A DNA stretch of 64,000 nucleotides from a virus: positions 2,150 through 66,149 of IMG/VR virus record IMGVR_UViG_3300031417_000382. One strand, given 5' to 3'. The position numbers were made by a program, and so were the translations under genes. Positions 9,346-59,263 of this stretch are shown one piece after another. Under the pieces are notes generated by a model, which searched no databases, had not been told where the DNA came from, and worked only from the letters and a program-made list of their open reading frames with translations. Every line of letters starts with the position of its first letter. The stretch's first letter is position 1.

Positions 9346-9352
9346 AATATCG
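9346..9352 (-). promoter_or_regulatory. CGATATT motif (candidate alternative -10)
   Basis: 32 nt upstream of ATG 9314. Confidence 0.5.
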
Positions 9353-9420
9353 AGCTCAGTGACCAAAAAACTTGCTAAGGGTTCTTGGACTGATGCCACT
9401 TATTCATGATGGTTCAACAC

Positions 9421-9461
9421 ACTTCTGGGGTGTTGCCTAAGTTAAGCAACACCCCAGAAGT
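9421..9461. terminator. Terminator hairpin with ACTTCT/AGAAGT base
   Basis: 16-bp perfect inverted repeat ACTTCTGGGGTGTTGC / GCAACACCCCAGAAGT just after 9471 stop. Confidence 0.75.
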
Positions 9462-9470
9462 TCTTATAGA

Positions 9471-10571
9471 TCAGTCCTCGTCGTACTCGATGTGTGCACC
9501 TAGCCCAAGTGCAGAGGACAGCTCTTCAAGCTGCTGTTCACGACCAAGCTTAGAGAGGTTCACATAGAGATGCACACCGTCCGCAAGTTCAGCTGTCATA
9601 AGTTTCCCTGCAGAAGCAACACGTGGTCCGGCGGTAAGACACTTCACGCCGTTGGCCATAAGCCCCAAAAGCATCTGCTTGCCCTGAGGATCACGAGCCA
9701 ATGCTGACCAATACTCGATGTACGCCGCCTTAAGGTTCTTACCCTGGATCACGTTTCCAAACTTATCAATGATCTTGCCCTTAGCGCGAGCTCGAGTCTC
9801 ACGAACTTCAGCCTCCTGAGCGATCTCTTCGATGAGAGCCAGCGAGGGCTTCTTTTCAACATCATCACCCTTGATGGTCTGTATAAGCTTCTCTTTAAAC
9901 AGTACCGCGCGAGGTGCGGTCAACGAGTAACCTGGCTTGAGCTTACGCCAGAACAGCTTCAACAGCTCTTCCGACGGATCGCGTAACTCACTCGCCACCA
10001 GGTGCTTAAGCTCGTTCTCCTCTCGCTTCACTTCCGCCCAAGAGCGGAGTTTCACAAGATCGAAGTCATCGTACGAGAGATTGCTAAAAAGCTTTCCCAA
10101 CTGACGATTCGTGTCTAGATCAGAGAGCGTAAACTCAATGAACGGCTCAGCGTCCATGATGTTTGCCTTGTCCAGATCAGTAAACAGCTTCCATGTGTAG
10201 CCATCAGTCAAGATACCGATGGTAGCGTCCGTCATGGTGAAGTATCGGTGAAGCTGCGCAGCTTGACGAGTCTGAAGAGGTGAGTTGAGCGGCTTCGTTT
10301 CGATCAAGACTTCAGGCATTCCGTCACCCTCGTAGTCAAGCGCGTAGTCCACACGCTCGCCACCCTTCCCAGGAGTGTCAGCCGTAAACTCAGGGATTAC
10401 TCGAGTCTCATCGAAGATATCCCACCCAAGCACCTGCTGGAGGATCGGCAGCACGAGAGCATGCTTCGTTTGTTCTTCGTTGAGGTCGCTGTCTTTTTTA
10501 GCGATGAGCGATGCAAGGTTCAAGGTCGGGTCCCTTTCCGAGGCTTGAAGAAGATATCGAAAAACCTGCAA
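9471..10571 (-). CDS. Solo type I restriction HsdR N-terminal (PD-(D/E)xK) domain protein
   Basis: EEQTKHALVLPILQ.VLGWD...VIPEF...ERVDYAL...LIETK...QLHRYF...ILTDGYTWKLFTDLDKANIMD.EPF. Confidence 0.8.
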   Translation of the reverse strand: MQVFRYLLQASERDPTLNLASLIAKKDSDLNEEQTKHALVLPILQQVLGWDIFDETRVIPEFTADTPGKGGERVDYALDYEGDGMPEVLIETKPLNSPLQTRQAAQLHRYFTMTDATIGILTDGYTWKLFTDLDKANIMDAEPFIEFTLSDLDTNRQLGKLFSNLSYDDFDLVKLRSWAEVKREENELKHLVASELRDPSEELLKLFWRKLKPGYSLTAPRAVLFKEKLIQTIKGDDVEKKPSLALIEEIAQEAEVRETRARAKGKIIDKFGNVIQGKNLKAAYIEYWSALARDPQGKQMLLGLMANGVKCLTAGPRVASAGKLMTAELADGVHLYVNLSKLGREQQLEELSSALGLGAHIEYDED

Positions 10572-10627
10572 TTTTAGCGTACGTTGAGATTTTGATTGAT
10601 ATACGATGTTCTATCAAGGAGATCAAT

Positions 10628-10768
10628 ATGACATGGGTGTTCACTTTTGAAGGCACTGAGATTGCTCAAGGCCCTTTCCCATTTGAAGACTTTGCTTGGC
10701 AAAAGGCTAAAGAGTATGCTGAAGAGTATAATCTAAACCCTGATGATATCCGCGTTTTTCAGATGTAA
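10628..10768 (+). CDS. 46-aa acidic hypothetical protein
   Basis: ATG at 10628 with AAGGAG RBS: MTWVFTFEGTEIAQGPFPFEDFAWQKAKEYAEEYNLNPDDIRVFQM; followed by hairpin. Confidence 0.6.
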   Translation: MTWVFTFEGTEIAQGPFPFEDFAWQKAKEYAEEYNLNPDDIRVFQM

Positions 10769-10777
10769 ACAGCTAAT

Positions 10778-10895: not shown

Positions 10896-11043
10896 CAGCT
10901 GTCTACAGTGCCGAAGCTACTCCCCGCTTCGACTCTACGGACCCGACAAGTCATCTTAACGGATCGGGTTAGTCAGCTTAACCGATATGATTCTTCACCT
11001 CCACTGTGGAGTATAAACACAGCCGACTAACAAAGGAAAAGCT

Positions 11044-12075
11044 ATGGCCAAGAAGAAAGCAAGCTCGCTCGAGATCTCTGACATCCGAGTGAAGTACGAC
11101 AAGAACGATGGAAGCCTCCGGATCACCTCCAAGGACCCCGACCTCAAAGGCAAACCGTTCACTCTCACCGTCACCGGGAACTCGCCCACCGCAGAGACGC
11201 TCTTCGAGCTCATGCGCGACCACGGACTCGTAGAAGAAGCTAAACTTCCGACAGACCTCACCATCAAAAGCGAGACTGTGCTTAAGGAGTTCTACGATCC
11301 CACCAAGCCTCTACAGTTCGTCCTCGGCGAGACCTACGGGAAAGAGCTCGCCACCATCGACCTTAGCGACATGCCACACATGTTCGTAAGCGGGGGCACC
11401 GGCTCCGGAAAATCAATCCTGCTCCACAGTCTCGCTCGGCAGATCGGACTTCGCAACGATTTCCAACTCACGATCTTCGACCCCACCGGCATCCAGTGGC
11501 CTCAGGATGACCTACGGGCGCAGGATCGAACTCTCCAAAGCAACGAGGCGCTAGCAGTAGAGCTTGAACAGCTCGAGGATGAACTTCAGTACCGCCAGTA
11601 CAGCATGAACGCCGAAGCGGTGAATCACGTGGCTCAAACGAAGAACCCGCCGAAGTACAGAGTGCTCATGCTCGACTACGCATCGCACTTCTTCCTCGGA
11701 GAAGGTGTCGATAAGAACGACGGAGTGGCGATGGCGAAGCACGAGCTTGCTAAGCAGCGACTCTTTAGGCTCCTGCGGCTCGGTCGCTCCGCCGGAATCT
11801 ACGTGATCCTCAGCACACAGAAATTTGACCTCGAAACTCTCCCGAACGAGATCCTCGACCTCATCCCTATCCGAATCGCCATGGGTTCTAACGGCTACAT
11901 GGCCTCCGCGGCTCTCCTCGGGAAGAAGCCTCTCTACGGCAAGGGCATACTCGACCGACCCGGCCGCGGAGTGTTAAGTCTCCACGGTAAGCAGACGCCG
12001 TTCCAGGCCTATCGCGTGGATACTAGTGGAAGCAACCGTGATCGAATGCTGAAAATGCTTCGAACAGTCAACTAG
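11044..12075 (+). CDS. FtsK/SpoIIIE-family P-loop ATPase
   Basis: PHMFVSGGTGSGKS Walker A, LLRLGRSAGIYVILSTQ, RPGRGVL; Walker B atypical (VLMLDY). Confidence 0.8.
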   Translation: MAKKKASSLEISDIRVKYDKNDGSLRITSKDPDLKGKPFTLTVTGNSPTAETLFELMRDHGLVEEAKLPTDLTIKSETVLKEFYDPTKPLQFVLGETYGKELATIDLSDMPHMFVSGGTGSGKSILLHSLARQIGLRNDFQLTIFDPTGIQWPQDDLRAQDRTLQSNEALAVELEQLEDELQYRQYSMNAEAVNHVAQTKNPPKYRVLMLDYASHFFLGEGVDKNDGVAMAKHELAKQRLFRLLRLGRSAGIYVILSTQKFDLETLPNEILDLIPIRIAMGSNGYMASAALLGKKPLYGKGILDRPGRGVLSLHGKQTPFQAYRVDTSGSNRDRMLKMLRTVN

Positions 12076-12217: not shown

Positions 12218-12865
12218 TTAGTCGCTCTTGCTCCATCCGTGCGCTTCCAATACTGATCTATACTCTCGAGCTATAGCAAGAGCTTGAGTTTCACGATAGC
12301 TCTCCATTGAGTCAATTAACTTTTTTACTGTGCTTTTCGAGAAATCGAGATGAAACTCGCGGTCACAGAAGAGAAGTACCTCTTCTAGCGAAGGACGCAT
12401 AAACCCGCCTCCGACCGGAAAGTGAGCTGCAGACATAGGTACAAGACTGTCTTTAAACAGATCCCAGTTTTGTTGAGCATGAGTAAACTCTCCACGCTGG
12501 GCGTGTATGTGAAGATGAGAGTTTGGTACTTTTGCCGTATGCATGGCTTTAACGTACTCGTAGCGAAAAATAGGCTCTGTACGCTTTGCCGCACCGAAAA
12601 ACACGTGAAACTCAGATTTTGCAACTGAGAGATACTTGTTTTCCCTGTCTAACTCTAGCCCGAAAAGGAATGACGCTAATATCTTACGACTCGAGCTGAT
12701 AACGAAAAGCTTGTCCGCGTTCCTTGATGTAGAAATCGTAACTCGTCCAGTATTAGTAGCAGAGAGCTCGATCTCAAATGGACTTTCGCCGAAGCAATCG
12801 CTAAAAAGCTTATTCAGGTCATCTCTGAACTGAACAGCTAACTCATCAAGCGAGCGCGAACTCAA
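12218..12865 (-). CDS. Hypothetical protein (FRYEY...HLHIHA...HFPVGG..RPSLEEVL motif)
   Basis: ORF track 12218..12961; TTG at 12865 overlapping the upstream small ORF is the likelier start. Confidence 0.6.
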   Translation of the reverse strand: MSSRSLDELAVQFRDDLNKLFSDCFGESPFEIELSATNTGRVTISTSRNADKLFVISSSRKILASFLFGLELDRENKYLSVAKSEFHVFFGAAKRTEPIFRYEYVKAMHTAKVPNSHLHIHAQRGEFTHAQQNWDLFKDSLVPMSAAHFPVGGGFMRPSLEEVLLFCDREFHLDFSKSTVKKLIDSMESYRETQALAIAREYRSVLEAHGWSKSD

Positions 12866-13010
12866 GACTATCCAACCTATATGCCTGGCTAATCTCTGTA
12901 TTACTAGCAAAGTCCCAGAAGTCGAATCTCTGTTCAAGCTCTTCGCGGGAGTCAACTTCAAGATCTACCCGAAGCTTATCGCGTTCTGCCAGAAGTTCCT
13001 GCCTAGTCAT
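12846..13010 (-). CDS. 54-aa acidic helical protein (not in ORF track)
   Basis: ATG 13010 with GAGGAG RBS: MTRQELLAERDKLRVDLEVDSREELEQRFDFWDFASNTEISQAYRLDSLEFALA. Confidence 0.6.
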   Translation of the reverse strand: MTRQELLAERDKLRVDLEVDSREELEQRFDFWDFASNTEISQAYRLDSLEFALA

Positions 13011-13092: not shown

Positions 13093-13099
13093 AATATCG
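13093..13099 (-). promoter_or_regulatory. CGATATT motif
   Basis: Upstream of 13010 ATG, followed by a leader hairpin (13025-13079). Confidence 0.4.
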
Positions 13100-13137: not shown

Positions 13138-14334
13138 TTACACTTTTGAGAGCCGCGCTAGCTCCTCTTCAGTGGGTGGGCGAAGGATACTAAGCTCGAT
13201 CGAGCTGTTGCTCTTGAGCTGGATAGCCTGGTCTAACACACGCTTTACACTTTGCTCAGCTAAAAGCCACTGTGACTCCCAAACAAAGAACAATCGGTAT
13301 CCTTTTGTGCGAGCCAGCTCGAGCTTCTTCGTATGGTAAGCTACTGGGTCCCCACCGGTCTTTTCAGAGTGTTCGCCGTGCCAGAAGTCGCCGTTATACT
13401 CAATACCTAGCTTAAGCTCGGGGATCACTATGTCAATCTCGTATGGCTTGATGATTTTACGGTCACGAAGCTCGATATCCCAGGTCTGAGTAAGATATGC
13501 TGCTAGCTCTTTCTCTCCTTTACTAGCTTGACACTTGCCGCAACCAAACTTAGCTCTAACATCGTGTGTAGTGAAAGTATCGTGGCCTTCGTCACAGCGC
13601 CACCAATACTGTTGCCAGTTTCGACAGCCGATGGTGTCAAGTATCTCGAACGGTTGCTCGTTCTTAGGGCTCCATAAAGGACGGAGTTCGGGAAACTCAG
13701 TCATGGCGGAGATCACTCCTGGGATAGCCTTGTAGCCAGAGCATACGGGACAAGCATCAGTATCATTTGCCATCTTGACGATGATTCGGTCCCACTCGTG
13801 ACCTTTCTCACAAAGCCAAAGACCGCGGTCACCACTACCTGCAGTTACTTCGGTAGGAGTCTTAGAGTTGTTCGGGCTCCATAGCTTAGAAAGATCTGGA
13901 CGTGTAGTAGCCATGTCGTTAAACCCCATTACCACTACGCGGTTAGTGCATACAGGGCATAGAGGCTTACTAATTTTGCGCTGAACCGTCTTGATGGTCT
14001 CGTGCCCAAGATCGCAGCGCCAGAGATACTCAACGGATGAACGTAACCCTACTGAGCTAAAAGCGATTAGGTTGTCAGGAGACCAGTAAGGCGCAAGTTC
14101 CGGGTGCAAAGTAGCAGCGTCGTTAAGTCCTAAGACAAGCTCTCTCCCACTGCAGACTCTGCAAGGTTTTTCGGAGCGAAGTAGGTGACGTATAGACGCA
14201 GTGAAGCTATGGTCGCAATCAACTGCGTGGGCTTTTACTTCTTTACGCGAGTTAGGCGAAAGCTTAGCTGCTGAACCTTCTGAAAGCTTTACGCCGTAAA
14301 GCGTAAGCTTGTCTATCTGAAACTGATCGATCAA
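13138..14334 (-). CDS. Zinc-ribbon-repeat endonuclease (DUF4379-like repeats + Vsr/PD-(D/E)xK-like domain), putative free-standing homing endonuclease
   Basis: Repeated W.C..GH....CPVC units; C-term YEIDIVIPELKLGIEYNGDFWH...YHTKK...GYRLFFVWESQW; lies directly downstream of nrdE. Confidence 0.75.
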   Translation of the reverse strand: MIDQFQIDKLTLYGVKLSEGSAAKLSPNSRKEVKAHAVDCDHSFTASIRHLLRSEKPCRVCSGRELVLGLNDAATLHPELAPYWSPDNLIAFSSVGLRSSVEYLWRCDLGHETIKTVQRKISKPLCPVCTNRVVVMGFNDMATTRPDLSKLWSPNNSKTPTEVTAGSGDRGLWLCEKGHEWDRIIVKMANDTDACPVCSGYKAIPGVISAMTEFPELRPLWSPKNEQPFEILDTIGCRNWQQYWWRCDEGHDTFTTHDVRAKFGCGKCQASKGEKELAAYLTQTWDIELRDRKIIKPYEIDIVIPELKLGIEYNGDFWHGEHSEKTGGDPVAYHTKKLELARTKGYRLFFVWESQWLLAEQSVKRVLDQAIQLKSNSSIELSILRPPTEEELARLSKV

Positions 14335-14385: not shown

Positions 14386-14392
14386 AATATCA
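14386..14392 (-). promoter_or_regulatory. TGATATT motif
   Basis: Between nrdE terminator and endonuclease start (TTG 14334). Confidence 0.45.
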
Positions 14393-17106: not shown

Positions 17107-17778
17107 TTAACGCTGCTCAGGCCTCTCTAACTCGGCCTCTGTGGCGGCTAGTTTTGCCCGGAGTTTCGCGGCTTTCGCCTCGGTCTTCGCGTTAGCAGCC
17201 GCCTTAGCACGTGTTTCGACGCGTGGCTTGACTGCGGATGCTCGACGGCGTAGGTGCGTGTTGAGCGCTGCGTCTCGAGCGTCGGGGATACCGAGTTCTT
17301 CGCGGTTGATCTCCGCTACGGTCTTTCGCATAAAGACGAAGAGGCCGATGATGACGGCTACGATCACCGAGCTGGTGAGAGTGTAGCCGGGGCGTGTGGT
17401 CACCGCGTAGATCACGACGAGTAGGATAGCGGCGATGATGGCTGAGATTCGCTGTCGCCAGGTGGGCGAGAAGCGAGCTCGTACGTTTGTCCACTCGGGG
17501 TCGCGAGCCTTAAAGAATGTCCACCAGATTGCTCCGGCGTACCCGAGGACGAAGAGGGCGACGGAGGTCGGCACGAGTAAGAGCGTGCGCGCCACCATGC
17601 CCCATGAGCCCCACGGGAGGAACAGGTCCGCGGCTACAGTGATGAGTCCGAGGATCGCTGATGCTGCACCGGCGATTAGGAAGAGCTTCTTTCGGTCGGT
17701 GAGGAACCAGTCTCGGATGAGCAAGAGCGCCTCGCGGAAGTTCTTCACTTCGCGGATTGAGTTGAGTACCTGCTTCAT
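17107..17778 (-). CDS. Four-TM membrane protein with basic C-terminal coil
   Basis: Four hydrophobic segments; start abuts RecG-like stop. Confidence 0.65.
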   Translation of the reverse strand: MKQVLNSIREVKNFREALLLIRDWFLTDRKKLFLIAGAASAILGLITVAADLFLPWGSWGMVARTLLLVPTSVALFVLGYAGAIWWTFFKARDPEWTNVRARFSPTWRQRISAIIAAILLVVIYAVTTRPGYTLTSSVIVAVIIGLFVFMRKTVAEINREELGIPDARDAALNTHLRRRASAVKPRVETRAKAAANAKTEAKAAKLRAKLAATEAELERPEQR

Positions 17779-20441: not shown

Positions 20442-20451
20442 ATTGTACCGA
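20442..20451 (-). promoter_or_regulatory. SigA-type extended -10 (TCGGTACAAT), near-leaderless
   Basis: 6 nt upstream of recG ATG. Confidence 0.6.
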
Positions 20452-23529: not shown

Positions 23530-23539
23530 ATCTTACCAA
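23530..23539 (-). promoter_or_regulatory. SigA-type extended -10 (TTGGTAAGAT)
   Basis: Upstream of Clp ATG, RBS GAGGTGG. Confidence 0.55.
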
Positions 23540-24483: not shown

Positions 24484-24490
24484 AATATCG
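24484..24490 (-). promoter_or_regulatory. CGATATT motif
   Basis: 27 nt upstream of ATG 24457. Confidence 0.5.
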
Positions 24491-35611: not shown

Positions 35612-35744
35612 CTAGGAGGGCACCTTTCCGGAATGACATATCACCCAGCCTAGCTATCCTGTGCTGTTAGCATCACAGATAGACGCTCTCATACAAAACC
35701 GGCGAGCACCCCCGAAAGGGCGCCCGCCGGCTAAGGAGCGAAAA

Positions 35745-36870: not shown

Positions 36871-36880
36871 ATTTTACCGA
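36871..36880 (-). promoter_or_regulatory. SigA-type extended -10 (TCGGTAAAAT)
   Basis: 41 nt upstream of recA ATG. Confidence 0.6.
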
Positions 36881-46685: not shown

Positions 46686-46692
46686 AATATCG
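46686..46692 (-). promoter_or_regulatory. CGATATT motif
   Basis: 23 nt upstream of GTG 46663. Confidence 0.5.
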
Positions 46693-48424: not shown

Positions 48425-48431
48425 AATATCA
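48425..48431 (-). promoter_or_regulatory. TGATATT motif
   Basis: 39 nt upstream of ATG 48386. Confidence 0.45.
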
Positions 48432-48440: not shown

Positions 48441-51400
48441 CTACGAGCCCACTTTTCTCTCAAGATCAGCGAATACTGTCTGTACATCGGTCTCCTGAGT
48501 ACCGATTACGGTCGGCGTTGATGAGTAGTCTCCTGCGCCAGCAAGGTTGTTCTCGTAGGCGTACTGAACGATAGCCTGAGCGTAGAGATAGAGTACTGCC
48601 GAAAGCTCTCTCGGATCTCCGGTGCGGATAGCACGTTCAATGAGTGCTTCGTTTCCGTGCAGGTACGGACGTAGGAAGTCTGGGATCTCCGGCACTGCGC
48701 CGGCTTGAGTCAGATCCTTACGAAGCGCCTCACCGATGAGTTCTCCAGGAGTCGGGCCGTTCATTTCGCTCTGTTTGAGCGAAGCTGTCACGGCCGTAAG
48801 CTCAATACTGTCAACGTGAGATTTGGTCTTACGAACCTTTGCGTCCGGCGCAGCTTCCTGACCATCGCCACGGATTCGGATCTGCTGGTACGACCACTCC
48901 TGCGGCATATTGTCGATGCCGCCGAATTTCTCATTGACACATTCAACGTGCCACTTGTTGCCGTTAATGTCAGAAATCACGGTGCCTTGAGCAGCTCCGT
49001 TCGGCATATCTTCCAAGCCGTCTTTAAGCGGCTGGCCGCAGTAGACACAAAGCTCGCCTTCTGGAAGCTTTTCGCTTAGTGTCTCGTAAGTGTTTAGTGC
49101 ACGACGCATGGCCATGCTATCCTGGTAGTAAGCCTGAGTCTTAAGCTCACGGAGGAATCCGGTCTTCAGACCGTTGCCGAAACCTGCACCGTTACGAGCC
49201 GACATGACTCCACCGACCGCTGCCCCGACACCAACGTTGCTTACGCCGGCGCCGATCTTGCGCACCTGGCCCTTGAGTTTACCAGAGATCATGCTTGCTT
49301 TGCTCTCCATACTCGGATCAGCGAAGCGGAACGTAAAGAGGCCGCCGACCGTATCGATGAGCTTATCCTTGAGCTTCCACAGAATCACTGAGACGAGCGT
49401 GAGTGCAGCAACACCCCAGAAGTAATCCTGATCGGCCATCATGTTCAACACAGTGCTAAGGATCACCAGGTTAAGCACGAGGATGACTCCCATCATCACT
49501 CGCTTCATTATAAGGTTGAGAAGAAGTTGTCCCCAGGTCTTGAATGTCTCGTAGCCTCTATCTCCTAGGCTTCCCATGAGTAGGAAGATTGGAGCAAAAG
49601 CCATCACGATGATGATTCCGAACCCGTAGATAGCGGAGAGGAAGCCGAAAACAACGATGGTGAAGAGTCCGGCTCCGGCAGCTAAGATACTGGTAAAAGC
49701 GATACCGATTCTCTGTAGAGAGTTACCGCCGACCCACGTGCTCCAATAGGGAGTAGGCTTCTTGCTAAGATCGGGCTCAGCGTAGCGGACTTCCTTGATG
49801 GCCTCACCGTTGTTCTGGTTGACCTCCCCTGAGATGGCTGTTTCTTTCTCATTGTAGTTTGCCATGGCGTCTACGATGCGATACCAGTCGTTAGCGATGC
49901 CGTTAGTGTAAACAGCTAGCGACGGCTGCCCCGGCTCTGACGAGTCTTCAGAGTCCTTAGCCGGAGTTTGAGCGTGCGCGTTTGTCTCGGTTGAGATCTG
50001 GTATAGAGCCCAGTTGTAGATGTATGAGTCTCCACCGACCGGCACTGCAGCGTCACCGACCATGGCTTCGTTGTTGATCTTTACTTCGCCGGTCTTGCCG
50101 TATGAACCCTTCGGAATGTGTCCCTGAGCATAAAGCTTGTTGTAATCAGCACCGAACTGACCAAGTGACCACGGCTTTACTAAGAACGTAGCCCAAAGCT
50201 GGCATCCAACTGCGGAGCGCATGTTCTCAGAAGCTTTAGTCAGAAGATCTTGAGCACCCTTGGCATCGGTGACTGTCTTCCCCTTACCGGGGTTAGTTTC
50301 AACAGTCTTGGCTGCCGAGCCGTCTGTAGAACAGATGCCACCTCCGGCGGTAAGACTCGAGCTCATGGCGTTGATTACTAGTGACTGTAGCACCACAGCT
50401 GCGTTATTCGGAAGTGTGACGAAGAAAGCCGGGGCTGCGAAGACAATAATCGAGATCATGAAGAGCGCTACCGAGCGGAAGAGCATGGTGAGTGCACCTC
50501 TAAACTCGCGCTTAATCAGCCCCTTACGGATGAGCAAGAGGCCCACAAGCACCATCACAATGCCGATAAAAGGCTGATAGATCCCCTTGTAGAGGCTGGT
50601 GAACACGCCTCCTTCGCCACCGATGAGGTCGTTGAGCTTTAGCAGCTTAGTGAAATCAGAGAAAGAGATGTTGACGAGAGCAATTGCTACCGCTACGATG
50701 CTCTTGGTTACTGAGAACGTCCAGTTAGCCGTAGTGTTAAGGAATCCTTCACCGAGGTTTGCCATAAGCCCGTTACCGAACTGGGCAGTACGAACGTCCT
50801 TAGTGTCCTTCACGCCGTCGTAAGTAGTGAGAGGCTCAAGTCGGCCATCGTAAAGAACGCCGAGCTTTAGGTCGCGAGGCTCACCGTCACCGCAGATGTC
50901 TACATAAGGATAACGCCACTCTCCGTTGTAGCGAGTCCAGGAAAGGCCTGCCATGCCGAATCGGTCGTAAGCTGTTACTCGCGAACCGGAGTTCGGAGTC
51001 GCTTTCTTGATCGGTTCACCGTCGGTGAGATTAACACCGAGGATACGCTCGTTAGTCTTCGTGAAGCTCTCTGAGCGACCCCAGTTGATGAACGAGTTAA
51101 GAAGCCCGTCCACATCCTGAGTGCCGGAGTTTACAGTACTCTTTGATTCGAAAGCGAAGTGAAGGTCATCTGTATGAGTTACTCGGTAGATAGTGTAGGT
51201 TACGCTATCTTTACCGAAGAGCTTTGCGTCGCTGTCTGGGCCAGCCCAAGAGTTCATAAACGGAATACCGTCACAAACGATGTCGTTCGTGATGTCTGCG
51301 CTAGCTAACTCATGCTTGACCATCGATGTGGTGCTCACCGCTCCGAGAGTTGCAAGAGCGACTACAAATAGACCGGCAAGTGGAGCGAGTAGCTTCCTAC

Positions 51401-51443
51401 GGATTCGGGTAGTGCGGGAAGGGCGAGTGATGTACCCTGCCAT
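48441..51443 (-). CDS. VirB6/TrbL-like polytopic conjugation membrane protein (1000 aa)
   Basis: TM clusters, CQLWATFLVKPWSLGQFG, NWALYQ, WYRIVD, MAFAPIFLLMG...KTW. Confidence 0.7.
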   Translation of the reverse strand: MAGYITRPSRTTRIRRKLLAPLAGLFVVALATLGAVSTTSMVKHELASADITNDIVCDGIPFMNSWAGPDSDAKLFGKDSVTYTIYRVTHTDDLHFAFESKSTVNSGTQDVDGLLNSFINWGRSESFTKTNERILGVNLTDGEPIKKATPNSGSRVTAYDRFGMAGLSWTRYNGEWRYPYVDICGDGEPRDLKLGVLYDGRLEPLTTYDGVKDTKDVRTAQFGNGLMANLGEGFLNTTANWTFSVTKSIVAVAIALVNISFSDFTKLLKLNDLIGGEGGVFTSLYKGIYQPFIGIVMVLVGLLLIRKGLIKREFRGALTMLFRSVALFMISIIVFAAPAFFVTLPNNAAVVLQSLVINAMSSSLTAGGGICSTDGSAAKTVETNPGKGKTVTDAKGAQDLLTKASENMRSAVGCQLWATFLVKPWSLGQFGADYNKLYAQGHIPKGSYGKTGEVKINNEAMVGDAAVPVGGDSYIYNWALYQISTETNAHAQTPAKDSEDSSEPGQPSLAVYTNGIANDWYRIVDAMANYNEKETAISGEVNQNNGEAIKEVRYAEPDLSKKPTPYWSTWVGGNSLQRIGIAFTSILAAGAGLFTIVVFGFLSAIYGFGIIIVMAFAPIFLLMGSLGDRGYETFKTWGQLLLNLIMKRVMMGVILVLNLVILSTVLNMMADQDYFWGVAALTLVSVILWKLKDKLIDTVGGLFTFRFADPSMESKASMISGKLKGQVRKIGAGVSNVGVGAAVGGVMSARNGAGFGNGLKTGFLRELKTQAYYQDSMAMRRALNTYETLSEKLPEGELCVYCGQPLKDGLEDMPNGAAQGTVISDINGNKWHVECVNEKFGGIDNMPQEWSYQQIRIRGDGQEAAPDAKVRKTKSHVDSIELTAVTASLKQSEMNGPTPGELIGEALRKDLTQAGAVPEIPDFLRPYLHGNEALIERAIRTGDPRELSAVLYLYAQAIVQYAYENNLAGAGDYSSTPTVIGTQETDVQTVFADLERKVGS

Positions 51444-54400
51444 CAGTTACCCCCGTTGTTCTCGTCGTTTGTGCGGGGAGAGCTGTTGTTCCCTGCTGCT
51501 TTAACTCGAAGAGTCATATCACGAATGGCCTCTTTAGTGGCCTTTCGAGAGTCCGAAGCGATGTACTCCTGCTTCGAAACGTAGCGCAGCTGATCCTCGA
51601 TGCGCTCGATCTCAAACTCGACACTTTCTTGAGTTCGAGTATCTTTCATAGAGTCACGGATGAGCTTCTTTATCTTGACACGATCACCGTTGGTGAAGCC
51701 TTCAGTGTCAGAAAGCTCATTATCGATCTTCCGGAAGATCGTGTCCATGTCACCCTTCATCTCCACATCGAGGTTCTTCTCGAGCTTAGCCTTAGCGCGA
51801 AGATCGGTTTCCTCTCTGAACTGCTTGAGCGCCGGGGAAGCGTCGATGCGAGAGTAGTTACTGTAGGCGTTGCGAACACGCTCATCCGGGTTACTCTGAA
51901 CCTTTTCGAGACGTTCAACCTTTCGCTTACGGATGTCAAGCGATTCATCTTCAAGCTCAGCGTGACGCTCTACAAGACGACGATCCTGTGGCTTCATGAG
52001 ATCTTCGTAGTTATTGAAGTTCTCGGTAGGCTTAGAGATTAGCTCCTTTGATGGGTCGTCTTCAGCAACGATGAACTTTTCTAGAATCTGTTCTCCACGA
52101 CGGTCAAGCATCGGAAGACCTTCATCGGTGTAGCGAGGCTTTGCGACCTCGACGTAGCCCGGTTGCGTCTTTAGGAGATCGTAGAGCTGCTGCTTATCAC
52201 GAAGATCCTGAGTTGCCTGACCAGGAGTAGAGCTAGTTTCACCCTTCTCAAGAATCTCAGTAATACGGCGCTGAATATCCGGGTCAGCCTTTCGAGTAAG
52301 CTTCGTCTCGTTGTCGATCTCTTTAGCGGTAGCAAGACCAGAGCGAACGCCCTCGAATCCTTCGGAGCGACGCTGAACACGGAACAGCATAGCGTTACGT
52401 GAGCGAAGCTCGTCGAGTACTGCACCACCGAACTTGGTGTTCCCGTTCTCATCGGTGTACTTCTTGATTGGAGCGCGACCGGAGAAAACAGAACCAAGAG
52501 CAGCTGTAGCCACAGCTGTACGACCTTCCTGAAGTTGTTCAGCCTTCTGAGCAACAGTCTTAAGAAGCGGCCATTCCTTCATGGCTGCGCTTGGGTTCTC
52601 GCGCCACATACGACCAAAGTTCGGATCACCGATGCTCTTGAAGACGTAGCCCATGATGCTCTTTCTCCAGAACCAGAATAGAGCACAAACAAGCAAGCCC
52701 ATGAGGAAGCTATTGAAGTAGCTTCCGCTACCGGCTCCGGCGAATGTGAGCAGGAGTACGAAGAAGATCGAAAGTACGATGATGAGCACAACACGCTGAA
52801 TCATCATGCCGACAATAGCCATGAGATAGTCTTTGAGCTGCGGTCGCTTACTTGGGAACAGTCCCAGCAAGAATGCAAACGGTAGGAAGACCAGCATGAG
52901 AGCTGATACAGTCGTTACGGCAATCTTCGTCACTGAGTATGCGATCACCACTGCTGATCCAAAGATAGCTAGGATCGGGCTCAACGTAGCGATCAACCAA
53001 CGCTGGCTCTGATCAGCACCGGACCATGCGTGGCCGTATCGGTTTTCAGTACCCGCACCGTTATTTGGGCCGAACTGTGCGTCTACAATGCGGTAGAAGT
53101 TCGGATCTACACGGCCGTTCTTGATACTCGTGTCTGAAGTGGTTGCGGTGCCGGTCTTTACAGTGTCGAGCTGGTATAGAGCCCAGTTCTTAACCACAAC
53201 ACCGTTACCCATGTTGACACCTGCGTCGCCAACGAGTGAACCGTTAGTGTTCTTCCACTTCGTCGCTCCAGCCGGCACCCCGGTAGCGCCCTTAGCGTAA
53301 AGCTGGTTGAAATCAGCTCCGTACTGTCCGTAGACCCACGGGGTAAAGTCAAAGACACGCCAGTTATTACAGACGAGCTCGCGAGTAGCCTGCGATGAGC
53401 TCGTGTCTGTCATCTTCCCAAAGATGTTGCCCTTAGCGTTCACAGCTCCGTTAGTGGAAGTGCAAAGCTCATCGTTCCCCACGGAGCTCATCTTGAAGAT
53501 GTTCCCAACTACCGCTTGTTCTACCGCCGCCGGTGCTTTCTGAACAAAGTCGATGGTGGCGTCAGTTTTGTACATGAGCATGGTGCCGGAGATGAAGACC
53601 AGGCACATAAGGATGATGCTAGTGAAGCCTTCACGATAAGCCTGGTTCTTGAAGGCTCGGAAGAGAATCTGGATAGCGCCGGCGGCTACAAGCATGAACG
53701 CTAGTGGGAAGAAGATGCTATCCCGGAAGCCCTTGATGAGCCCGCTAATAATCTTGGTGAGCCCGAGAGAATCAAGAATCGGAGAGTACGTCCAGGTAAT
53801 AACCTCACTCGAAAGCTTCGTTGCGAACTGTCCGATACCAAGCCCGAACCCCTGGATCTGAGTCGAAAGCTCAGTAAGAGTGCCGGTGAAGACAACGCTC
53901 ATCGGGTCGCCGAAGTTTGAGATGTGGCGAGTATCAAGAGCAGGCTTCTGATTCGCACCGCCGGTGTAACCGTTGCCAAATAGGCCGTTCTGAATCGGTG
54001 CACGGAATTGCTTGTTACAGGCTGGGTTCGTGCCGCCGTCAGCGTTGAAAGCGTAGACGTACATCGAAACGCCGTTGACACTTCGCTGCATATCTGTGCC
54101 GTCAGCGTTTGTGCAAACGTAGCGACGCCATGGAGCATTGAAGTTGAGCGAATCCTGGTTCTTCTGGAGGAAGGACTGGATCATTACCTGAGATAGAACA
54201 TCCGAAACCCAGTCGTTGTTCTGCTGCGCCTGGTTGTCCTCATACTTCTTGTTGGCTACTTTGTTCCAAGCGTAGGGAGAGCTTACGCTTCCCGCCGGCT
54301 TTCCACCGGTGTAAGAAGTACCGGCGCCACTAGCGGTTCCACCCCAGCAGTCTTTAAAGCTGCCCCAGATAGAGTCAGCGGAAGTACCGCCGTTAGAGTA

Positions 54401-55912
54401 GGTAGCGGAGCAGTCGATGCCAAGTGCCTTACCCTTGTTCAGTACGTCACTGTTCCACTCAGCCCAAGTAGCTGCGGTGTCAGCCTTACGATTACCGTCA
54501 GCGTCATACTTGTAGAAGTCATCAAGGCTAAGCTTGTCACCGTCGTAAGCCTTAGCGCTCTTCCACTGATTGATACTCTCACGAGCCTGTGACTCACACG
54601 AGTCCCGCTTAATCCCGGTGTAGTTTGGGTCGTTCTGCTGATCACCGGAGGGCTTACCTCGTTCTTCGAAGCCACCTCGCGATGGCTCGCCCTCAGCGTT
54701 GACCTTAACAGTCATCACTTCACACTTAGCAATCGGCTTCCGTGGCGGTTTACCTCCGTCAGCAATGCTTAAGAGATCGTCTCCTAGTATGGCGTTAGCT
54801 GGATTGCTCTGAGTCAGAATCTGAATGAAGGATAGGCGGATAGCTGCCGCCATCTCAGCGTCTGTGAGCTGCCGCATTCCGTACGCAGTGTTTGCGTAAC
54901 CAACGCGATACCAGGCAAACGAGACGAGTACGTTCAGATCTGAAGAGTCTAAGATCGGCGTAATACCTCCGGCCACACTCCCTTGGAAGTAGCCAGAGAA
55001 GAATCCGCCGATGGCTTTGAAGACGTTGCCGTTACTTCCGAGCTGATCGTTGAAGTTGTCAACACCAACAGCTAGTCCGCTCGAGATAGAGTTACCCACC
55101 GCACTACCAGTAAGGGAAATCTTGTCGAAGAATCCAAAGTTACTCAGAAGACGTGCTTCGCTTTGAGTCTTGATGTGATCCCATTCACCGAGATAAGTAG
55201 TCCACGGCAGGCTGTAACCGTAAAGCTCGAGACCGGTGTACTTCTCGGAGCGGAAGTCAGCGTTGACCGGAACCTGCCCATCACCGGGAAGATTCTTCGG
55301 GATCCCAAATAGATCTCCAGCGTAGGCGTTCTGAGCCTCACCGTTCTGAACTCCAGAGCGGTCAAAGAGCGCGTAGCTGTCCTGGAGGAACTCAGTCATT
55401 AAGTTCGGTACATCACAATTGTGGTAGTACGCTGTGCCGGCACCGCGAGCGTTCGTGTTACAAGCATAGACAGTTGAGCTCGGGTTACTGATACCAAGCT
55501 TTTCGGCCATAGCTCTTGAGGAGCCGGCAACGGTTGCGTGCTTTACATTGTTGATGTAGCGGATGCCAAAGACACTCCAAAGAAGGCCTTGTAGCGAGGT
55601 AACCTCTTTGGTAGAGTCATAGGAGCTCACCTGATTAAAGAGATAGCTGCCGTTCTGCTCATCCTTCGGAATACCCGGATCTAAGCTGTCAAGCACCTTC
55701 TTAGCGTCGTCAGCAGCTTTCTGAGACTCAGCAGACGAATCCCCCGGATCAGCAAATGCGATCTCAGGAGAAATTCCCACGCCGGAGACGAGCACGAAGA
55801 AAGCCAGGAGCGTAGCCACCATCGAGACTGCCCACTTAGCGACACCTCTACCGGAGCGCGCAGTGCGACGACCGCCGGCAATGTATGTCGCCCCAGCGTT
55901 TCTAGCGTGCAT
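51443..55912 (-). CDS. VirB6/TrbL-like polytopic conjugation membrane protein (1489 aa) with large extracellular domain
   Basis: Paralogous core CNNWRVFDFTPWVYGQYG, NWALYQ, FYRIVD, FLPFAFLLGLFP; long N-terminal extracellular insert and charged C-terminal coil. Confidence 0.7.
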   Translation of the reverse strand: MHARNAGATYIAGGRRTARSGRGVAKWAVSMVATLLAFFVLVSGVGISPEIAFADPGDSSAESQKAADDAKKVLDSLDPGIPKDEQNGSYLFNQVSSYDSTKEVTSLQGLLWSVFGIRYINNVKHATVAGSSRAMAEKLGISNPSSTVYACNTNARGAGTAYYHNCDVPNLMTEFLQDSYALFDRSGVQNGEAQNAYAGDLFGIPKNLPGDGQVPVNADFRSEKYTGLELYGYSLPWTTYLGEWDHIKTQSEARLLSNFGFFDKISLTGSAVGNSISSGLAVGVDNFNDQLGSNGNVFKAIGGFFSGYFQGSVAGGITPILDSSDLNVLVSFAWYRVGYANTAYGMRQLTDAEMAAAIRLSFIQILTQSNPANAILGDDLLSIADGGKPPRKPIAKCEVMTVKVNAEGEPSRGGFEERGKPSGDQQNDPNYTGIKRDSCESQARESINQWKSAKAYDGDKLSLDDFYKYDADGNRKADTAATWAEWNSDVLNKGKALGIDCSATYSNGGTSADSIWGSFKDCWGGTASGAGTSYTGGKPAGSVSSPYAWNKVANKKYEDNQAQQNNDWVSDVLSQVMIQSFLQKNQDSLNFNAPWRRYVCTNADGTDMQRSVNGVSMYVYAFNADGGTNPACNKQFRAPIQNGLFGNGYTGGANQKPALDTRHISNFGDPMSVVFTGTLTELSTQIQGFGLGIGQFATKLSSEVITWTYSPILDSLGLTKIISGLIKGFRDSIFFPLAFMLVAAGAIQILFRAFKNQAYREGFTSIILMCLVFISGTMLMYKTDATIDFVQKAPAAVEQAVVGNIFKMSSVGNDELCTSTNGAVNAKGNIFGKMTDTSSSQATRELVCNNWRVFDFTPWVYGQYGADFNQLYAKGATGVPAGATKWKNTNGSLVGDAGVNMGNGVVVKNWALYQLDTVKTGTATTSDTSIKNGRVDPNFYRIVDAQFGPNNGAGTENRYGHAWSGADQSQRWLIATLSPILAIFGSAVVIAYSVTKIAVTTVSALMLVFLPFAFLLGLFPSKRPQLKDYLMAIVGMMIQRVVLIIVLSIFFVLLLTFAGAGSGSYFNSFLMGLLVCALFWFWRKSIMGYVFKSIGDPNFGRMWRENPSAAMKEWPLLKTVAQKAEQLQEGRTAVATAALGSVFSGRAPIKKYTDENGNTKFGGAVLDELRSRNAMLFRVQRRSEGFEGVRSGLATAKEIDNETKLTRKADPDIQRRITEILEKGETSSTPGQATQDLRDKQQLYDLLKTQPGYVEVAKPRYTDEGLPMLDRRGEQILEKFIVAEDDPSKELISKPTENFNNYEDLMKPQDRRLVERHAELEDESLDIRKRKVERLEKVQSNPDERVRNAYSNYSRIDASPALKQFREETDLRAKAKLEKNLDVEMKGDMDTIFRKIDNELSDTEGFTNGDRVKIKKLIRDSMKDTRTQESVEFEIERIEDQLRYVSKQEYIASDSRKATKEAIRDMTLRVKAAGNNSSPRTNDENNGGN

Positions 55913-55938: not shown

Positions 55939-56496
55939 TTACGAAGGAATATCGTTAGACCCTCGCTCAGTGATGGCGTATAGAAGACCAACACAACTAT
56001 CCGGCCTATCCCCACAGAACTTGCAATCGTAGGAGTACTTCTTGGACTTTTCGACGTAGTGGCCTTCATACTCTTTTACGAGAGAGAAGCCAAGCGCTGA
56101 TAGGACATCCTCGCTACCAATGAGGGGAACTCCCGGCATTGAATCAGTGTCACCGGTGCCTGGCACCTTGAGCATGATCTCTACTCTGTCAGCGCCGTGG
56201 GCCGACATCTTTCGAAGTACCCCGAAAGTAAGAAGGGTGCCGAAGCCCTCTTTACGATACGGCGGTGCAACCACCACAGCGTCAATAGAGCCGGTGACAA
56301 GTGTCTGATTGCCGACAGTAGTGTTCTGAAAATGGTAAAGTGCGAAACCGATAAACGCGCCGTCTGAGATCTTGATCATCAGATAGTAGGTGTGGCCGTA
56401 GCTAAACAACGACTTAAGGACACCAAGCCCGAGTGACTCGTTGGCTATCTTCTTAATCTCGATAGGCAACGAAGCATACGTTAGCTTTGAACTCAT
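55939..56496 (-). CDS. GNAT acetyltransferase with C-terminal CxxC motif
   Basis: VVVAPPYRKEGFGTLL acetyl-CoA motif A; YDCKFCG...SC. Confidence 0.8.
   Translation of the reverse strand: MSSKLTYASLPIEIKKIANESLGLGVLKSLFSYGHTYYLMIKISDGAFIGFALYHFQNTTVGNQTLVTGSIDAVVVAPPYRKEGFGTLLTFGVLRKMSAHGADRVEIMLKVPGTGDTDSMPGVPLIGSEDVLSALGFSLVKEYEGHYVEKSKKYSYDCKFCGDRPDSCVGLLYAITERGSNDIPS
55948..55954 (-). promoter_or_regulatory. CGATATT motif
   Basis: 36 nt upstream of ATG 55912. Confidence 0.5.
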
Positions 56497-56538: not shown

Positions 56539-56545
56539 AATATCG
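56539..56545 (-). promoter_or_regulatory. CGATATT motif
   Basis: 43 nt upstream of ATG 56496. Confidence 0.5.
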
Positions 56546-56560
56546 AACTCACAGGCGATT

Positions 56561-56998: not shown

Positions 56999-57005
56999 AG
57001 ATGGA

Positions 57006-57446
57006 TCACTTCGAGTAGGAGCCGACGCCGTAGAACGCGGCGGTGCGAGCCCAGCGCTTAATGATTTCCTGCTGCTTATCGAGCAGTTCGGAGACCGGCA
57101 CCGGGTTTTCTGAATCTTCGGCGATGAGCCATCCGTCCTTAGTGAGGGTAAGCTCGATCTTCCGATTGGTCTTCGCCGAGGGCCTCAGGTTGATCTGGGA
57201 GTTCTGTGTGAACGGCACTCGTAAGACGAGTTTAGAACCGAGATCCCAAGGCTGCCGAGCGACCGTTGAAGTCTTTAGGCGAGTCTGAATACGAGCGTTG
57301 TCAAAGACGATGTTCTTCTGATCCTCAGTGAGGCGAAGCTTCCACTTCTTCTGAGCAATCTTGATTTCGTCGTTAATCGTGGCGTCGAGCTCATCTAGGA
57401 AAGACTCGGGCAACTCGAGGTTGAGCGTTAGGTAAGAGTCAGCCAA
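57006..57446 (-). CDS. Hypothetical protein
   Basis: 146-aa ORF with RBS AAAGAGG and TTGGTAAGAT promoter at 57483-57492. Confidence 0.6.
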   Translation of the reverse strand: MADSYLTLNLELPESFLDELDATINDEIKIAQKKWKLRLTEDQKNIVFDNARIQTRLKTSTVARQPWDLGSKLVLRVPFTQNSQINLRPSAKTNRKIELTLTKDGWLIAEDSENPVPVSELLDKQQEIIKRWARTAAFYGVGSYSK

Positions 57447-57498
57447 GGTGAGTCCTCTTTCGTCAGGTTGTTACTTGGGCTCATCTTACCAAGACGGC

Positions 57499-57789
57499 TC
57501 ACTCAGTTGTTCTTACCCGATCAAGGAAATGCTTCATAGCGCGGATACGAACCGTCTTGGAAGCTGGAACCTCAATTGTCTCGCCGGTACGAGGGTTTTT
57601 CAACTCTCGAGCTGAACGGACGCTTGGCTCTACAGCGAGGAAGCCCATAAGCTTTACCTCGATACCGCGAGCCACGGTATCCATCACGATCTCCTGTAAA
57701 GAGTCAACTACCTTAGTCACAACCGCTTTCTCTACGGCTGTTTTCTTACTAATGGACTCTACGAGATCTGCTTTGTTGAGAATCGGCAT
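57499..57789 (-). CDS. HU family DNA-binding protein
   Basis: LNKADLVESISKK...V.L.GF...RSARELKNPRTGETIEVPASKTVRI. Confidence 0.9.
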   Translation of the reverse strand: MPILNKADLVESISKKTAVEKAVVTKVVDSLQEIVMDTVARGIEVKLMGFLAVEPSVRSARELKNPRTGETIEVPASKTVRIRAMKHFLDRVRTTE

Positions 57790-57803
57790 AAAGGGCGTTC
57801 CTA

Positions 57804-58184
57804 TCAGTGTCGCGGGGTGTTTCGGCCTCGTCGGAAGAGAGAAGGCTTCTCTACCGGCGAATCAGTTCGTGTTGATGCCTGCTGTGCACGATCGATGTCG
57901 TCCATGAGCTTGTTTGAGTCTTCGTCATCGAGGCGCGGCCCATCGTCCGGCTCTACATCGAACACAGAACGCTCGAGCACCTGCATGTCATCATCGTTAA
58001 CGGCAGGAGCTTCTTCCTCTGTACTGAATAGCTCAGGGAGAGCTGTTCGAGAGTACGCACGGTCACGCTTTAGGCTGATTAGGAAGGCGATCACCGCTCC
58101 GATGGCTAGTAAACCGAGGACAGCGAGAATTAGCGTTGCGCCGATGACGCTTGCACCTGAACTAGAAGTCATGTCGAAGTTCAT
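57804..58184 (-). CDS. Bitopic membrane protein with acidic tail
   Basis: ATG 58184 overlaps sigma stop (ATGA); one TM helix. Confidence 0.6.
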   Translation of the reverse strand: MNFDMTSSSGASVIGATLILAVLGLLAIGAVIAFLISLKRDRAYSRTALPELFSTEEEAPAVNDDDMQVLERSVFDVEPDDGPRLDDEDSNKLMDDIDRAQQASTRTDSPVEKPSLFRRGRNTPRH

Positions 58185-59263
58185 GCGTTCTCCCGAGGTA
58201 GGAATAGGGGCTCCCATTGTGATTTAGCTATCACTTCAGCGCCGTTATCGACAGCTTTGATCGTTCGCTTAATGTCGAACTCATCGAAGCCTTGCCCTCC
58301 AGCACGCTTCAGGAAGGCGTAGAACGGCCCCTTAGCGTCTCTGATGAGTAGTTTCCATTGCGATACGAGCTTGCGTAGTGCGCTGTTAGACAGCTGCTCA
58401 AGGGCAGCTTGTTCTTCGTCAGACAGTTCTGACTGAAGTTCGTGCTTGATGGCTAGAACGGCTTCAGGTGTGAAGCGCTCCTCAGCTACGAAAGCACCGA
58501 ACAGTGTCTCATCAAAGATCTTCGTTGAGATTTCACCGAACACCATCTCACTCATAGAGCGATCAAGCGGATCGATGAGATTTTGGACGATGAGATTACG
58601 CTCGAAGTACTCCTGCTCTTCAACGAGCTCGAGAGTGATCTTCTGATTGCTGCTATAACGTTTCTCAGATGAACCGACGCGGCCGTTCATCGACTTAACA
58701 TCGGCAGCGCCGGAGTGCAGGTAATCAAGGACTTCCTGATTGGTGGCGTAGCGACCGTAGAGCTCGGATAGCTTTTTTCGAACTGCTGAGATCTTCTTAT
58801 AAGTGTGGAATCTCGACGGTGGGATGCCGAACGGAGCAGCCTCAAGTGTGAGAAGCTCTTTCTTCGCGTAAGCAGTGAACCACTGAAGTAGGTAGTTCGT
58901 CGCTGATGAATCGAGCTTGTCTACATCGAAGTGGCGAAGCCCTTTGACTGCTCCTGCGCGACCAGCGTAGTAAAGCTGGTTATAGATGCTCTCATCTGTC
59001 CCACGAAGATGGCTCTTCGAAAGGATCGAGTTTACCTCACGAATAATGAGCGGCTCAGCGAGCTTAAGCAGCTTGTCAAGAGCGTACTCGCGAAGTGTGA
59101 AAGCTGCGTCTACTTGAGTCTGAAGCTCCGGCTCATCGTCGAGATACTTTACCAGCTTTTCGTAGCTGTCATCAGAATCTTGGAAGATTGGCACATAGTA
59201 GCGAAGAGACTCTACTGTAAGACGCTCCCCCAAGCTCTTTGCTGTCTGCTTCTTCGGCGTCAC
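58181..59263 (-). CDS. Sigma-70-like RNA polymerase sigma factor (divergent)
   Basis: Region 2: EPLIIREV...QLYYAGRAGAVKGLRHFD....ATNYLLQWFTAY; region 3-like KLSELYGRYATNQEV; region 4 not clearly recognisable. Confidence 0.65.
   Translation of the reverse strand: MTPKKQTAKSLGERLTVESLRYYVPIFQDSDDSYEKLVKYLDDEPELQTQVDAAFTLREYALDKLLKLAEPLIIREVNSILSKSHLRGTDESIYNQLYYAGRAGAVKGLRHFDVDKLDSSATNYLLQWFTAYAKKELLTLEAAPFGIPPSRFHTYKKISAVRKKLSELYGRYATNQEVLDYLHSGAADVKSMNGRVGSSEKRYSSNQKITLELVEEQEYFERNLIVQNLIDPLDRSMSEMVFGEISTKIFDETLFGAFVAEERFTPEAVLAIKHELQSELSDEEQAALEQLSNSALRKLVSQWKLLIRDAKGPFYAFLKRAGGQGFDEFDIKRTIKAVDNGAEVIAKSQWEPLFLPRENA

Follow-up and report, generated by a model that had tools for sequence, protein, structure and literature searches.

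The sequence analysed here (hereafter, the window) is a stretch of 64,000 nucleotides (nt) corresponding to bases 2150-66149 of a single linear contig of 88,999 bp, IMG/VR record IMGVR_UViG_3300031417_000382. The source database files this contig as a virus record of class provirus with an estimated completeness of 31%, and counts made on the contig cover that share (about 31%) of the element, not the contents lying off it. We called 93 open reading frames (ORFs) across the whole contig, with 81.6 kb of coding DNA and an intergenic share of 8.5%; the minus strand carries nearly all genes. One ORF of the window (58181-59263) encodes a divergent sigma factor of the sigma-70 family, and many genes are preceded by one of two promoter-like motifs, YGATAT(T) (class 1) and an extended -10 (class 2). 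The DNA is present in public phyllosphere, leaf-litter, plant and soil metagenome runs, and searches of plasmid and phage collections with the contig DNA returned no near match.

Class 1, an oriented motif upstream of genes

The initial annotation reported nine YGATATT heptamers ahead of genes, and all nine are present at the positions it gave, as seven CGATATT and two TGATATT, all on the gene strand (Table 1). The window contains 12 YGATATT matches, 12 of 12 on the minus strand. This raw number is not significant (8.1 matches expected; at least 12 in 11 of 100 shuffles): the signal is the position and orientation of the sites, not how many there are. Across the contig we found 37 YGATAT sites, 21 of which are intergenic. 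In the intervals from -100 to -10 of the 93 ORFs, 17 sense sites were counted versus 2 antisense ones, and 2000 dinucleotide-preserving shuffles of these intervals averaged 2.12 sites, with at most 8 in any of them. The enrichment over background or coding DNA that the initial annotation proposed to look for is thus found upstream of genes. An unbiased ranking of hexamers in the same intervals places TGATAT (9 versus 1.0 expected) and GATATT (9 versus 1.1) first and second of all, and a ranking in oriented upstream intergenic DNA of the whole contig has TGATAT, GATATT and CGATAT as its top three, enriched 11-13 fold. The single plus-strand site of Table 1 precedes one of the few plus-strand genes, showing that the motif tracks gene direction rather than DNA strand.

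Coding DNA contains only 12 sense and 4 antisense YGATAT. About 33 per strand would be expected from base composition alone, a figure in which dinucleotide bias is still included. This scarcity within genes would fit selection against stray promoters, above all antisense ones.

When ATAT is held fixed, G precedes it 18 times in the contig, compared with two times for each of the other bases; one position further upstream, T or C occurs 17 times, A once and G never. Flanks from -45 to +20 show no conserved position, except a preference for T directly after YGATAT, in either the 17 contig sites or 48 pooled sites. There is thus no -35 element, in agreement with the initial annotation, which saw no shared one, and class 1 does not consist of copies of a repeated element. 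That annotation also listed looser variants ahead of other genes. Those ending at 8482, 35643 and 60555 proved to be true YGATAT, whereas several others fit class 2 in the form TGnTAnnnT, such as TGATACTAT upstream of 6872 and TGATATCGT, at leaderless spacing, upstream of 4576.

Relatives of the element were found through the sigma factor. An exhaustive profile-free search with ORF 58181-59263 yielded 96 homologue clusters (at 50% identity), 33 of them below E 1e-30. The family is known only from metagenomes: no homologue was detected in 185,579 species genomes, tblastn of the sigma factor against 50,697 phage records returned nothing, and a search of IMG/VR with the single sigma protein gave no relative. 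Contigs of homologues reach 189-438 kb, two of them with inverted terminal repeats, and the gene order SbcC, T2SSE ATPase, sigma factor, small gene, HU and GNAT protein, followed by two very large proteins, is kept. In seven related loci (30-70% protein identity; GC content 31-51%), TGATAT occurs 27 times (5.4 expected) and GATATT 26 times (5.9 expected). These two hexamers are the top two of 4096, with 33 sense sites versus 3 antisense ones.

The motif is also conserved at orthologous genes. Six lineages (L004, L008, L009, L010, L018 and L021) have a class-1 site 31-66 nt before the ATPase orthologue, and five (among them L004, L009, L010 and L021) have one 40-44 nt before the GNAT gene, where the heptamer has been kept while the surrounding spacer diverged. 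The TrbL-like gene is preceded by a class-1 site in four lineages (YGATATT at 42-67 nt in L009, L018 and L020), and in L020 a CGATATT is found 44 nt before the orthologue of the gene 48441-51443, which encodes 1000 amino acids (aa). Over whole related records, the heptamer is biased between strands (48:5, 30:3 and 74:26), while the same letters read backwards as a control give 37:34, 12:25 and 38:50, and the arms of the record with terminal repeats mirror each other. The picture is mixed in distant relatives. In L023 and L024, distant members of the family with a different region 2.4 in the sigma factor, YGATAT is not enriched and TA(A/T)GATC is dominant in L024; three TGATATCTT sites are present in these loci, two of them reading better as a leaderless extended -10. 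Taken together, the sites in the seven loci, at orthologous genes and over whole related records are strong evidence that the motif is a functional, oriented and gene-proximal signal, assigned to particular genes and kept through evolution.

Two side observations concern the architecture of these relatives. A record of 437,576 bp carries the sigma region twice, in mirror image and near both ends (L010 41670-62662 and, reversed, L011 374915-395907), which implies terminal inverted repeats of more than 60 kb, provided that the record is correctly assembled. On the 349.7-kb contig of L024, an apparent dense array of tRNA genes and a TnpB/Cas12f-like gene (L024:1-5000 and L024:6336-7958) lie just upstream of the sigma region.

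Orientation and closeness to start codons would also fit an RNA element, that is, a signal in the 5'-untranslated region such as a processing site or a site for an RNA-binding protein, and the motif could alternatively be a half-site for a DNA-binding regulator. We consider any such non-promoter function very improbable. The distance from motif to start codon, mostly 23-52 nt in the contig, ranges from 20 to 75 nt among the 48 pooled sites, and no flank or structure is conserved with it. One site (42554-42560) directly follows a terminator, where a new transcript must begin. Finally, many units would have no recognisable promoter if class-1 sites were disregarded, and a scan for consensus -35/-10 pairs recovered fewer than in shuffles (5 versus 10.5).

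Class 2 and the division between the two classes

The hexamers ranking next after those of class 1 are GTAAGA (13 versus 2.8 expected) and TAAGAT (11 versus 2.1), along with GGTAAG and TCGGTA. Joined up, these words give (T)GGTAAGAT, which is an extended -10 (TGnTAnnAT). Sites of this kind precede the genes for RecA, RecG, a Clp-type ATPase, DnaB, DnaN (the beta clamp), SSB, SbcC and a dTDP-sugar epimerase. The initial annotation had set replication and repair genes apart by an extended -10 of their own, a distinction that holds for recA, recG, sbcC, ssb, Clp and the epimerase. Relatives keep class 2 as well: sbcC orthologues are preceded by TGnTAAnAT, and orthologues of the gene 57006-57446 by TGGTAAAAT (L008), TGGTAGAAT (L009) and TGGTATGAT (L020).

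Four class-2 hexamers (TACAAT, TACTAT, TACCAT and TAGAAT) stand exactly 6-7 nt before an ATG, at 20442-20449 (recG), at 6878-6886 (before the gene 6135-6872), in the contig before window coordinate -1008, and at window coordinates 70808-70815 (plus strand). This is the geometry of leaderless mRNAs, and thus an independent sign that TAnnAT acts as a -10 here. Such mRNAs are frequent in Actinobacteria and in a small number of other phyla, and these arrangements may be a clue to the host of the element.

The two promoter-like classes are nearly exclusive, with 16 genes carrying class 1 only, 18 class 2 only and 2 both, and they are unlike in gene function. Class-1 genes encode a T2SSE/VirB11-like ATPase, a 1489-aa protein weakly matching TrbL/VirB6, FtsK/SpoIIIE-like, nuclease-like and GNAT proteins, and many proteins of unknown function.

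Could the primary sigma factor of the host read both classes? Under this explanation GATATT would be a weak -10, perhaps helped by an activator or appropriator encoded by the element, and class 1 would be a regulated subset. Class 2 does correspond to the extended -10 promoters of primary sigma factors (TGnTAnnnT), its leaderless form TAnnAT-N6-ATG included. As for class 1, GATATT agrees with TATAAT at 4 of 6 positions (A-11 and T-7 being kept), a minority of sites (TGATATNNT) fit TGnTAnnnT, and three sites at exact leaderless spacing read best in that way. However, G is strongly preferred in class 1 where primary sigma factors want T, the would-be -7 of the TGn register is T in only 12 of the 48 pooled sites, and about half of the contig sites (8 of 17) have C where 'TG' would need T. 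Moreover, class 1 keeps its identity across GC contents of 31-53%, and at orthologous genes the two classes remain distinct. We thus regard reading by the host primary sigma factor as improbable.

Some RNA data are available from leaf litter. Nearly all contigs of four metatranscriptomes that match a 20-kb stretch fall in 42229-45669, where they cover ssb (42612-43133), the 785-aa gene (43268-45625) and the 272-aa gene (41710-42528). One contig (42388-42538) ends about 9 nt past the start predicted from the class-1 site 42554-42560, a weak indication, and no contig from the four runs bridges 42539-42619, which is also weak. Most class-1 genes are without cover in these runs, which counts as evidence for neither side. 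RNA contigs from two studies end at 43172 and 43173, 12 nt past the start predicted for the class-2 promoter of ssb (again a weak indication).

The features of the window are listed in Table 1. The true start of the gene at 8616-~9308 is probably an ATG about 31 nt downstream, rather than the TTG at 9347.

Table 1. Motif sites, the terminator-like hairpin and the sigma gene in the window (window coordinates)
Feature	Position	Strand	Context
Divergent sigma-70-family gene P0001, 360 aa	58181..59263	-	Regions 1.2-3.0 recognisable; C-terminal domain aa 247-360
Class-1 TGATATG	60549..60555	-	41 nt before T2SSE-ATPase gene 59264-60508, which runs directly into the sigma gene
Class-1 CGATATT	56539..56545	-	43 nt before GNAT-like gene 55939-56496
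Class-1 CGATATT	55948..55954	-	36 nt before 1489-aa TrbL/VirB6-like gene 51443-55912
TGATATG	51515..51521	-	72 nt before 1000-aa gene 48441-51443; within the end of the upstream ORF
Class-1 TGATATT	48425..48431	-	39 nt before gene 47115-48386
Class-1 CGATATT	46686..46692	-	23 nt before gene 45626-46663; 785-aa gene 43268-45625 next, with no gap
Intrinsic-terminator-like hairpin, 15 pairs, 10 G-C	42559..42592	-	Ends the ssb unit just before a class-1 site
Class-1 CGATATT	42554..42560	-	26 nt before gene 41710-42528; overlaps the tail of the strong terminator hairpin
Class-1 TGATATG	35637..35643	-	26 nt before gene 34994-35611
Class-1 CGATATT	24484..24490	-	27 nt before gene 23564-24457
Class-1 TGATATT	14386..14392	-	52 nt before DUF4379/REase-like gene 13138-14334
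Class-1 CGATATT	13093..13099	-	Gene 12218-12961; about 83 nt before the likely ATG
CGATATG	10983..10989	+	55 nt before plus-strand FtsK/SpoIIIE-like gene 11044-12075
Class-1 CGATATT	9346..9352	-	Gene 8616-~9308
TGATATC	8476..8482	-	34 nt before gene 7708-8442
Class-2 GGTACAAT	62869..62876	-	Before sbcC; true sbcC start below the TTG at 62878
Class-2 TGGTAAGAT	57483..57491	-	36 nt before gene 57006-57446
Class-2 GGTACCAT	43192..43199	-	58 nt before ssb (42612-43133)
Class-2 GGTAAAAT	36871..36878	-	40 nt before recA (35745-36830)
Class-2 TGGTAAGAT	23530..23538	-	33 nt before Clp-type ATPase gene (21457-23496)
Class-2 GGTACAAT	20442..20449	-	6 nt before the ATG of recG (17778-20435); leaderless-mRNA spacing

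The sigma factor and the element that carries it

The ORF 58181-59263 is a real and very divergent sigma-70 relative, novel in sequence. On its own, the protein has no match in Pfam, NCBIfam or PHROGs, and a search of solved sigma A chains with the single sequence gave only E 0.2. By contrast, a profile built from 44 homologues matches sigma factors only (E 8e-8 to 1e-5), the best being SigA, HrdB and SigB of Streptomyces and Mycobacterium (E 8e-8 to 3e-7), and the alignment covers regions 1.2-3.0. For region 3, the family PF04539 (Sigma70_r3) is detected in 22 of the 44 members, weakly (best E 1e-4). An AF2 (AlphaFold2) model of the protein has a predicted local distance difference test (pLDDT) of 89.6, and all top 50 Foldseek matches to it are sigma A/B chains. 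Profile and fold thus agree with the initial annotation, which had called this protein sigma-70-like with a clear region 2.

In E. coli sigma-70, residues Q437 and T440 read the -12 base pair. The alignment places A131 (T in most relatives) and K134 at these two positions, and K134 is invariant among close family members. Judging from this alignment, the lysine could contact a guanine.

The C-terminal 114 residues alone also form a confidently predicted fold (pLDDT 94), with no sequence match in the PDB and no Foldseek match better than E 2.6. Structural alignment with VIA-align gives Z of at most 3.7, and about 17 of its top 40 matches are sigma region 4 domains, which align to residues 6-75 of the model, that is, its first four helices. 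It is possible, from these model comparisons, that the domain is a much changed and at most degenerate region 4. The statement in the initial annotation that no region 4 is obvious is too strong given these weak, recurrent structural matches. Promoters without a -35 fit a much changed region 4. As no gene for the beta subunit of RNA polymerase was found in five records, the sigma factor would have to use the core enzyme of the host.

The virus label of the contig can be questioned. No match to the terminase, HK97 capsid and portal families PF03237, PF05065 and PF04860 was found in four or five records of 189-438 kb, although divergent virion genes would escape such a search, and PHROGs matches in the contig are to DNA-metabolism families only. 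All 3 complete relatives have TraG-D_C (TraG/VirD4-type), and 4 of 5 records have AAA_10; TrbL matches occur in L020, L021 and weakly in the window, and T2SSE/VirB11-like ATPases are found throughout. The large proteins of relatives carry TrbL, M23 peptidase and lysozyme domains, with a sortase in a distant member. The conjugative setting in which the initial annotation placed these genes is thus plausible, given type IV secretion-type genes in relatives and three virion families without a match, but unproven; judged by gene content, it appears at least as good as the virus label. Likewise, the records G001-G004 (L007-L011), which are filed as viruses, may be giant conjugative-type elements rather than phages.

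Close to the sigma gene, the 96-aa gene 57499-57789 (minus strand), two genes past it, is the orthologue of an HU-type gene (Bac_DNA_binding) that occupies the same place in relatives. In a close relative, a 181-aa gene with PCRF/RF-1 release-factor domains (L004:1368-1913 and L005:456-1001, both on the minus strand) adjoins an RpoD-like sigma gene.

Relatives do in fact carry further sigma-like genes. A complete RpoD/SigB-like sigma factor, a full group-1/2-type protein, is encoded a few kb upstream of the sigma gene, and after it and a small gene comes a conserved protein of 420-430 aa (L004:3582-4844, L008:3678-4952, L009:2004-3290 and L010:2142-3428). With only a 13-bit Sigma70_r2 signal and no NCBIfam match, this protein is at most a possible third sigma-like factor. 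The 89-kb contig (about 31% of the element) contains no Sigma70_r2 match and no orthologue of these second and third genes, but since it is a fragment, this absence says little.

These genes lead to another explanation, in which class 1 is a -10 read by a different sigma factor, either the RpoD-like or 420-aa protein of relatives or a host factor of the FliA/SigD/WhiG type, and the sigma gene 58181-59263 is merely a member of the regulon. The sigma operon does lie behind a class-1 site in six lineages, the two further genes are in conserved synteny, and in our case they may lie off the contig. Moreover, FliA/SigD/WhiG-type sigma factors have a -10 of the form GCCGATAT/A, within promoters of the form TAAA-N15-GCCGATAA/T (sigma-28), and the CGATAT core matches the SigD-type -10. 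However, a full group-1/2-type RpoD-like sigma factor is expected to read TAnnnT, which is class 2, and the sigma nature of the third protein comes down to the 13-bit match. As for FliA-type factors, class 1 has only the CGATA core in common with their promoters: the TAAA at -35 and the GC ahead of that core, both of which they require, are absent from the 48 pooled sites, where those columns show no preference. In addition, at least half of the sites have T in place of C. We thus consider a reader other than the 58181-59263 protein rather unlikely.

Reading of class 1 and comparison with known systems

Assigning the motif to the sigma factor 58181-59263 is the best available hypothesis, with chances that we see as about equal either way. 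YGATAT(T) would be a -35-independent -10 in the register G-12 A-11 T-10 A-9 T-8 T-7, with a pyrimidine at -13. It would be read by this sigma factor with the host core enzyme, and would drive the class-1 genes, with their transfer-like, membrane and accessory functions, in a giant mobile element. An element without its own RNA polymerase would in this way redirect the host core through an alternative sigma factor. The protein 58181-59263 is the likeliest such reader. Its region 2.4 appears to lack both residues that read T(-12) in primary sigma factors and to have the invariant lysine instead, and its C-terminal domain is a degenerate region 4 at most. Replication and repair genes, on the extended -10 TGnTAnnAT, would be left to the host primary sigma factor or to the RpoD-like factor of relatives. 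As to whether class 1 is indeed driven in this manner, we hold the case to be evenly balanced.

The initial annotation envisaged a phage-like programme in two stages, with host-read replication and repair genes followed by self-read transfer genes. The two gene classes are there, but the sigma gene itself stands behind a class-1 site in the six lineages listed above, so the arrangement is not a simple two-stage cascade and looks more like feed-forward combined with autoregulation. In the window, a class-2-type TGATAAGAT occurs about 50 nt upstream of the class-1 site 60549..60555, and no terminator-like site was found between sbcC and the T2SSE-ATPase gene. On this scheme, the first sigma factor would come from an ordinary class-2-type promoter or from transcripts running on out of sbcC; later it would amplify its own synthesis and turn on the class-1 genes. 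A different layout is seen in L020: the sigma gene comes after sbcC and lacks a class-1 site of its own, and class-1 sites precede large transfer-like genes. This layout is that of a simple cascade.

Several points weigh against assigning class 1 to the sigma factor 58181-59263. The RNA evidence amounts to a small number of assembled contigs, which give weak hints of where transcription starts. The class-1 site before the sigma operon in six lineages fits equally a different reader acting upstream of the sigma factor, and the RpoD-like and third sigma-like genes of relatives are alternative readers, our contig being about 31% of the element. As both the motif and the sigma factor are invariant across close relatives, there is no co-variation to exploit. 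The -12 residues are assigned by alignment, together with textbook knowledge on E. coli sigma-70. Lastly, the TAnnnT register of class 2 also accommodates four contig sites (TGATATNNT or CGATATNNT).

Known systems offer partial parallels. Late promoters of phage T4, read by gp55, consist of a -10 only (TATAAATA), and gp55 has no normal region 4. Promoters lacking a -35 and a sigma factor without a normal region 4 are thus common to T4 and to the scheme proposed here, but the promoter sequence differs, and gp55 is a far smaller protein that depends on gp33 and the sliding clamp.

The late promoters of Bacillus phage SPO1, quoted as CGTTAGA-N17-19-GATATT in PMC3601020, have a -10 identical to ours. 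They are read by gp34, with gp33. There, as in the scheme proposed here, a divergent sigma factor of a mobile element turns the host core RNA polymerase to a gene class of its own. However, SPO1 has a conserved -35 (CGTTAGA), while none is found upstream of the motif in our 17 or 48 sites. The sigma factor described here is also unrelated to its SPO1 counterpart at the BLAST level, and its genetic context consists of type IV secretion-like genes, with no virion genes detected.

A plasmid-borne case is SigN of the Bacillus subtilis plasmid pBS32, a plasmid-encoded sigma factor whose regulon is confined to the plasmid, and whose gene has SigA-dependent promoters and a SigN-dependent one in tandem, with positive feedback (PMC6751061). 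The succession of TGATAAGAT and TGATATG before the ATPase-sigma operon parallels these tandem promoters. On the other hand, SigN resembles extracytoplasmic function (ECF) sigma factors, whereas the protein studied here aligns with group 1/2 sigma factors over regions 1.2-3, and the SigN regulon includes nucleotide and replication genes, which carry the ordinary class in our contig. None of these systems, the sigma-28 promoters discussed above included, provides a family assignment. The inocle elements of oral streptococci were also considered as relatives and dropped, as inocles are circular, with GC contents of 24-32%.

A broader picture, which we put forward as a tentative possibility, is that of an undescribed lineage of conjugative-type elements of about 190-440 kb, filed as viruses and in some cases bearing inverted terminal repeats, which would run a sigma programme on the RNA polymerase of the host with up to three sigma factors of their own. 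One of these, from a Pfam-invisible family (with K in place of the threonine that reads -12, and a degenerate region 4), would read a -35-less YGATATT and thereby switch on both transfer and its own synthesis.

Sigma substitution is textbook for phages. It is also known for one Bacillus plasmid, but it is not established for a large conjugative-type element that splits a host-read maintenance set from a self-read transfer set. Our analysis provides a testable pair for such a case, namely a promoter word of seven bases kept across elements with GC contents of 31-53% and a sigma family known from metagenomes alone. If the link between the two is true, the -10 specificity (G at -12) would be new and would go with a simple residue change, and the two would form a compact, orthogonal pair of sigma factor and promoter. 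The link would also supply a sequence rule with which to annotate transcription units in giant elements that are now filed as viruses.

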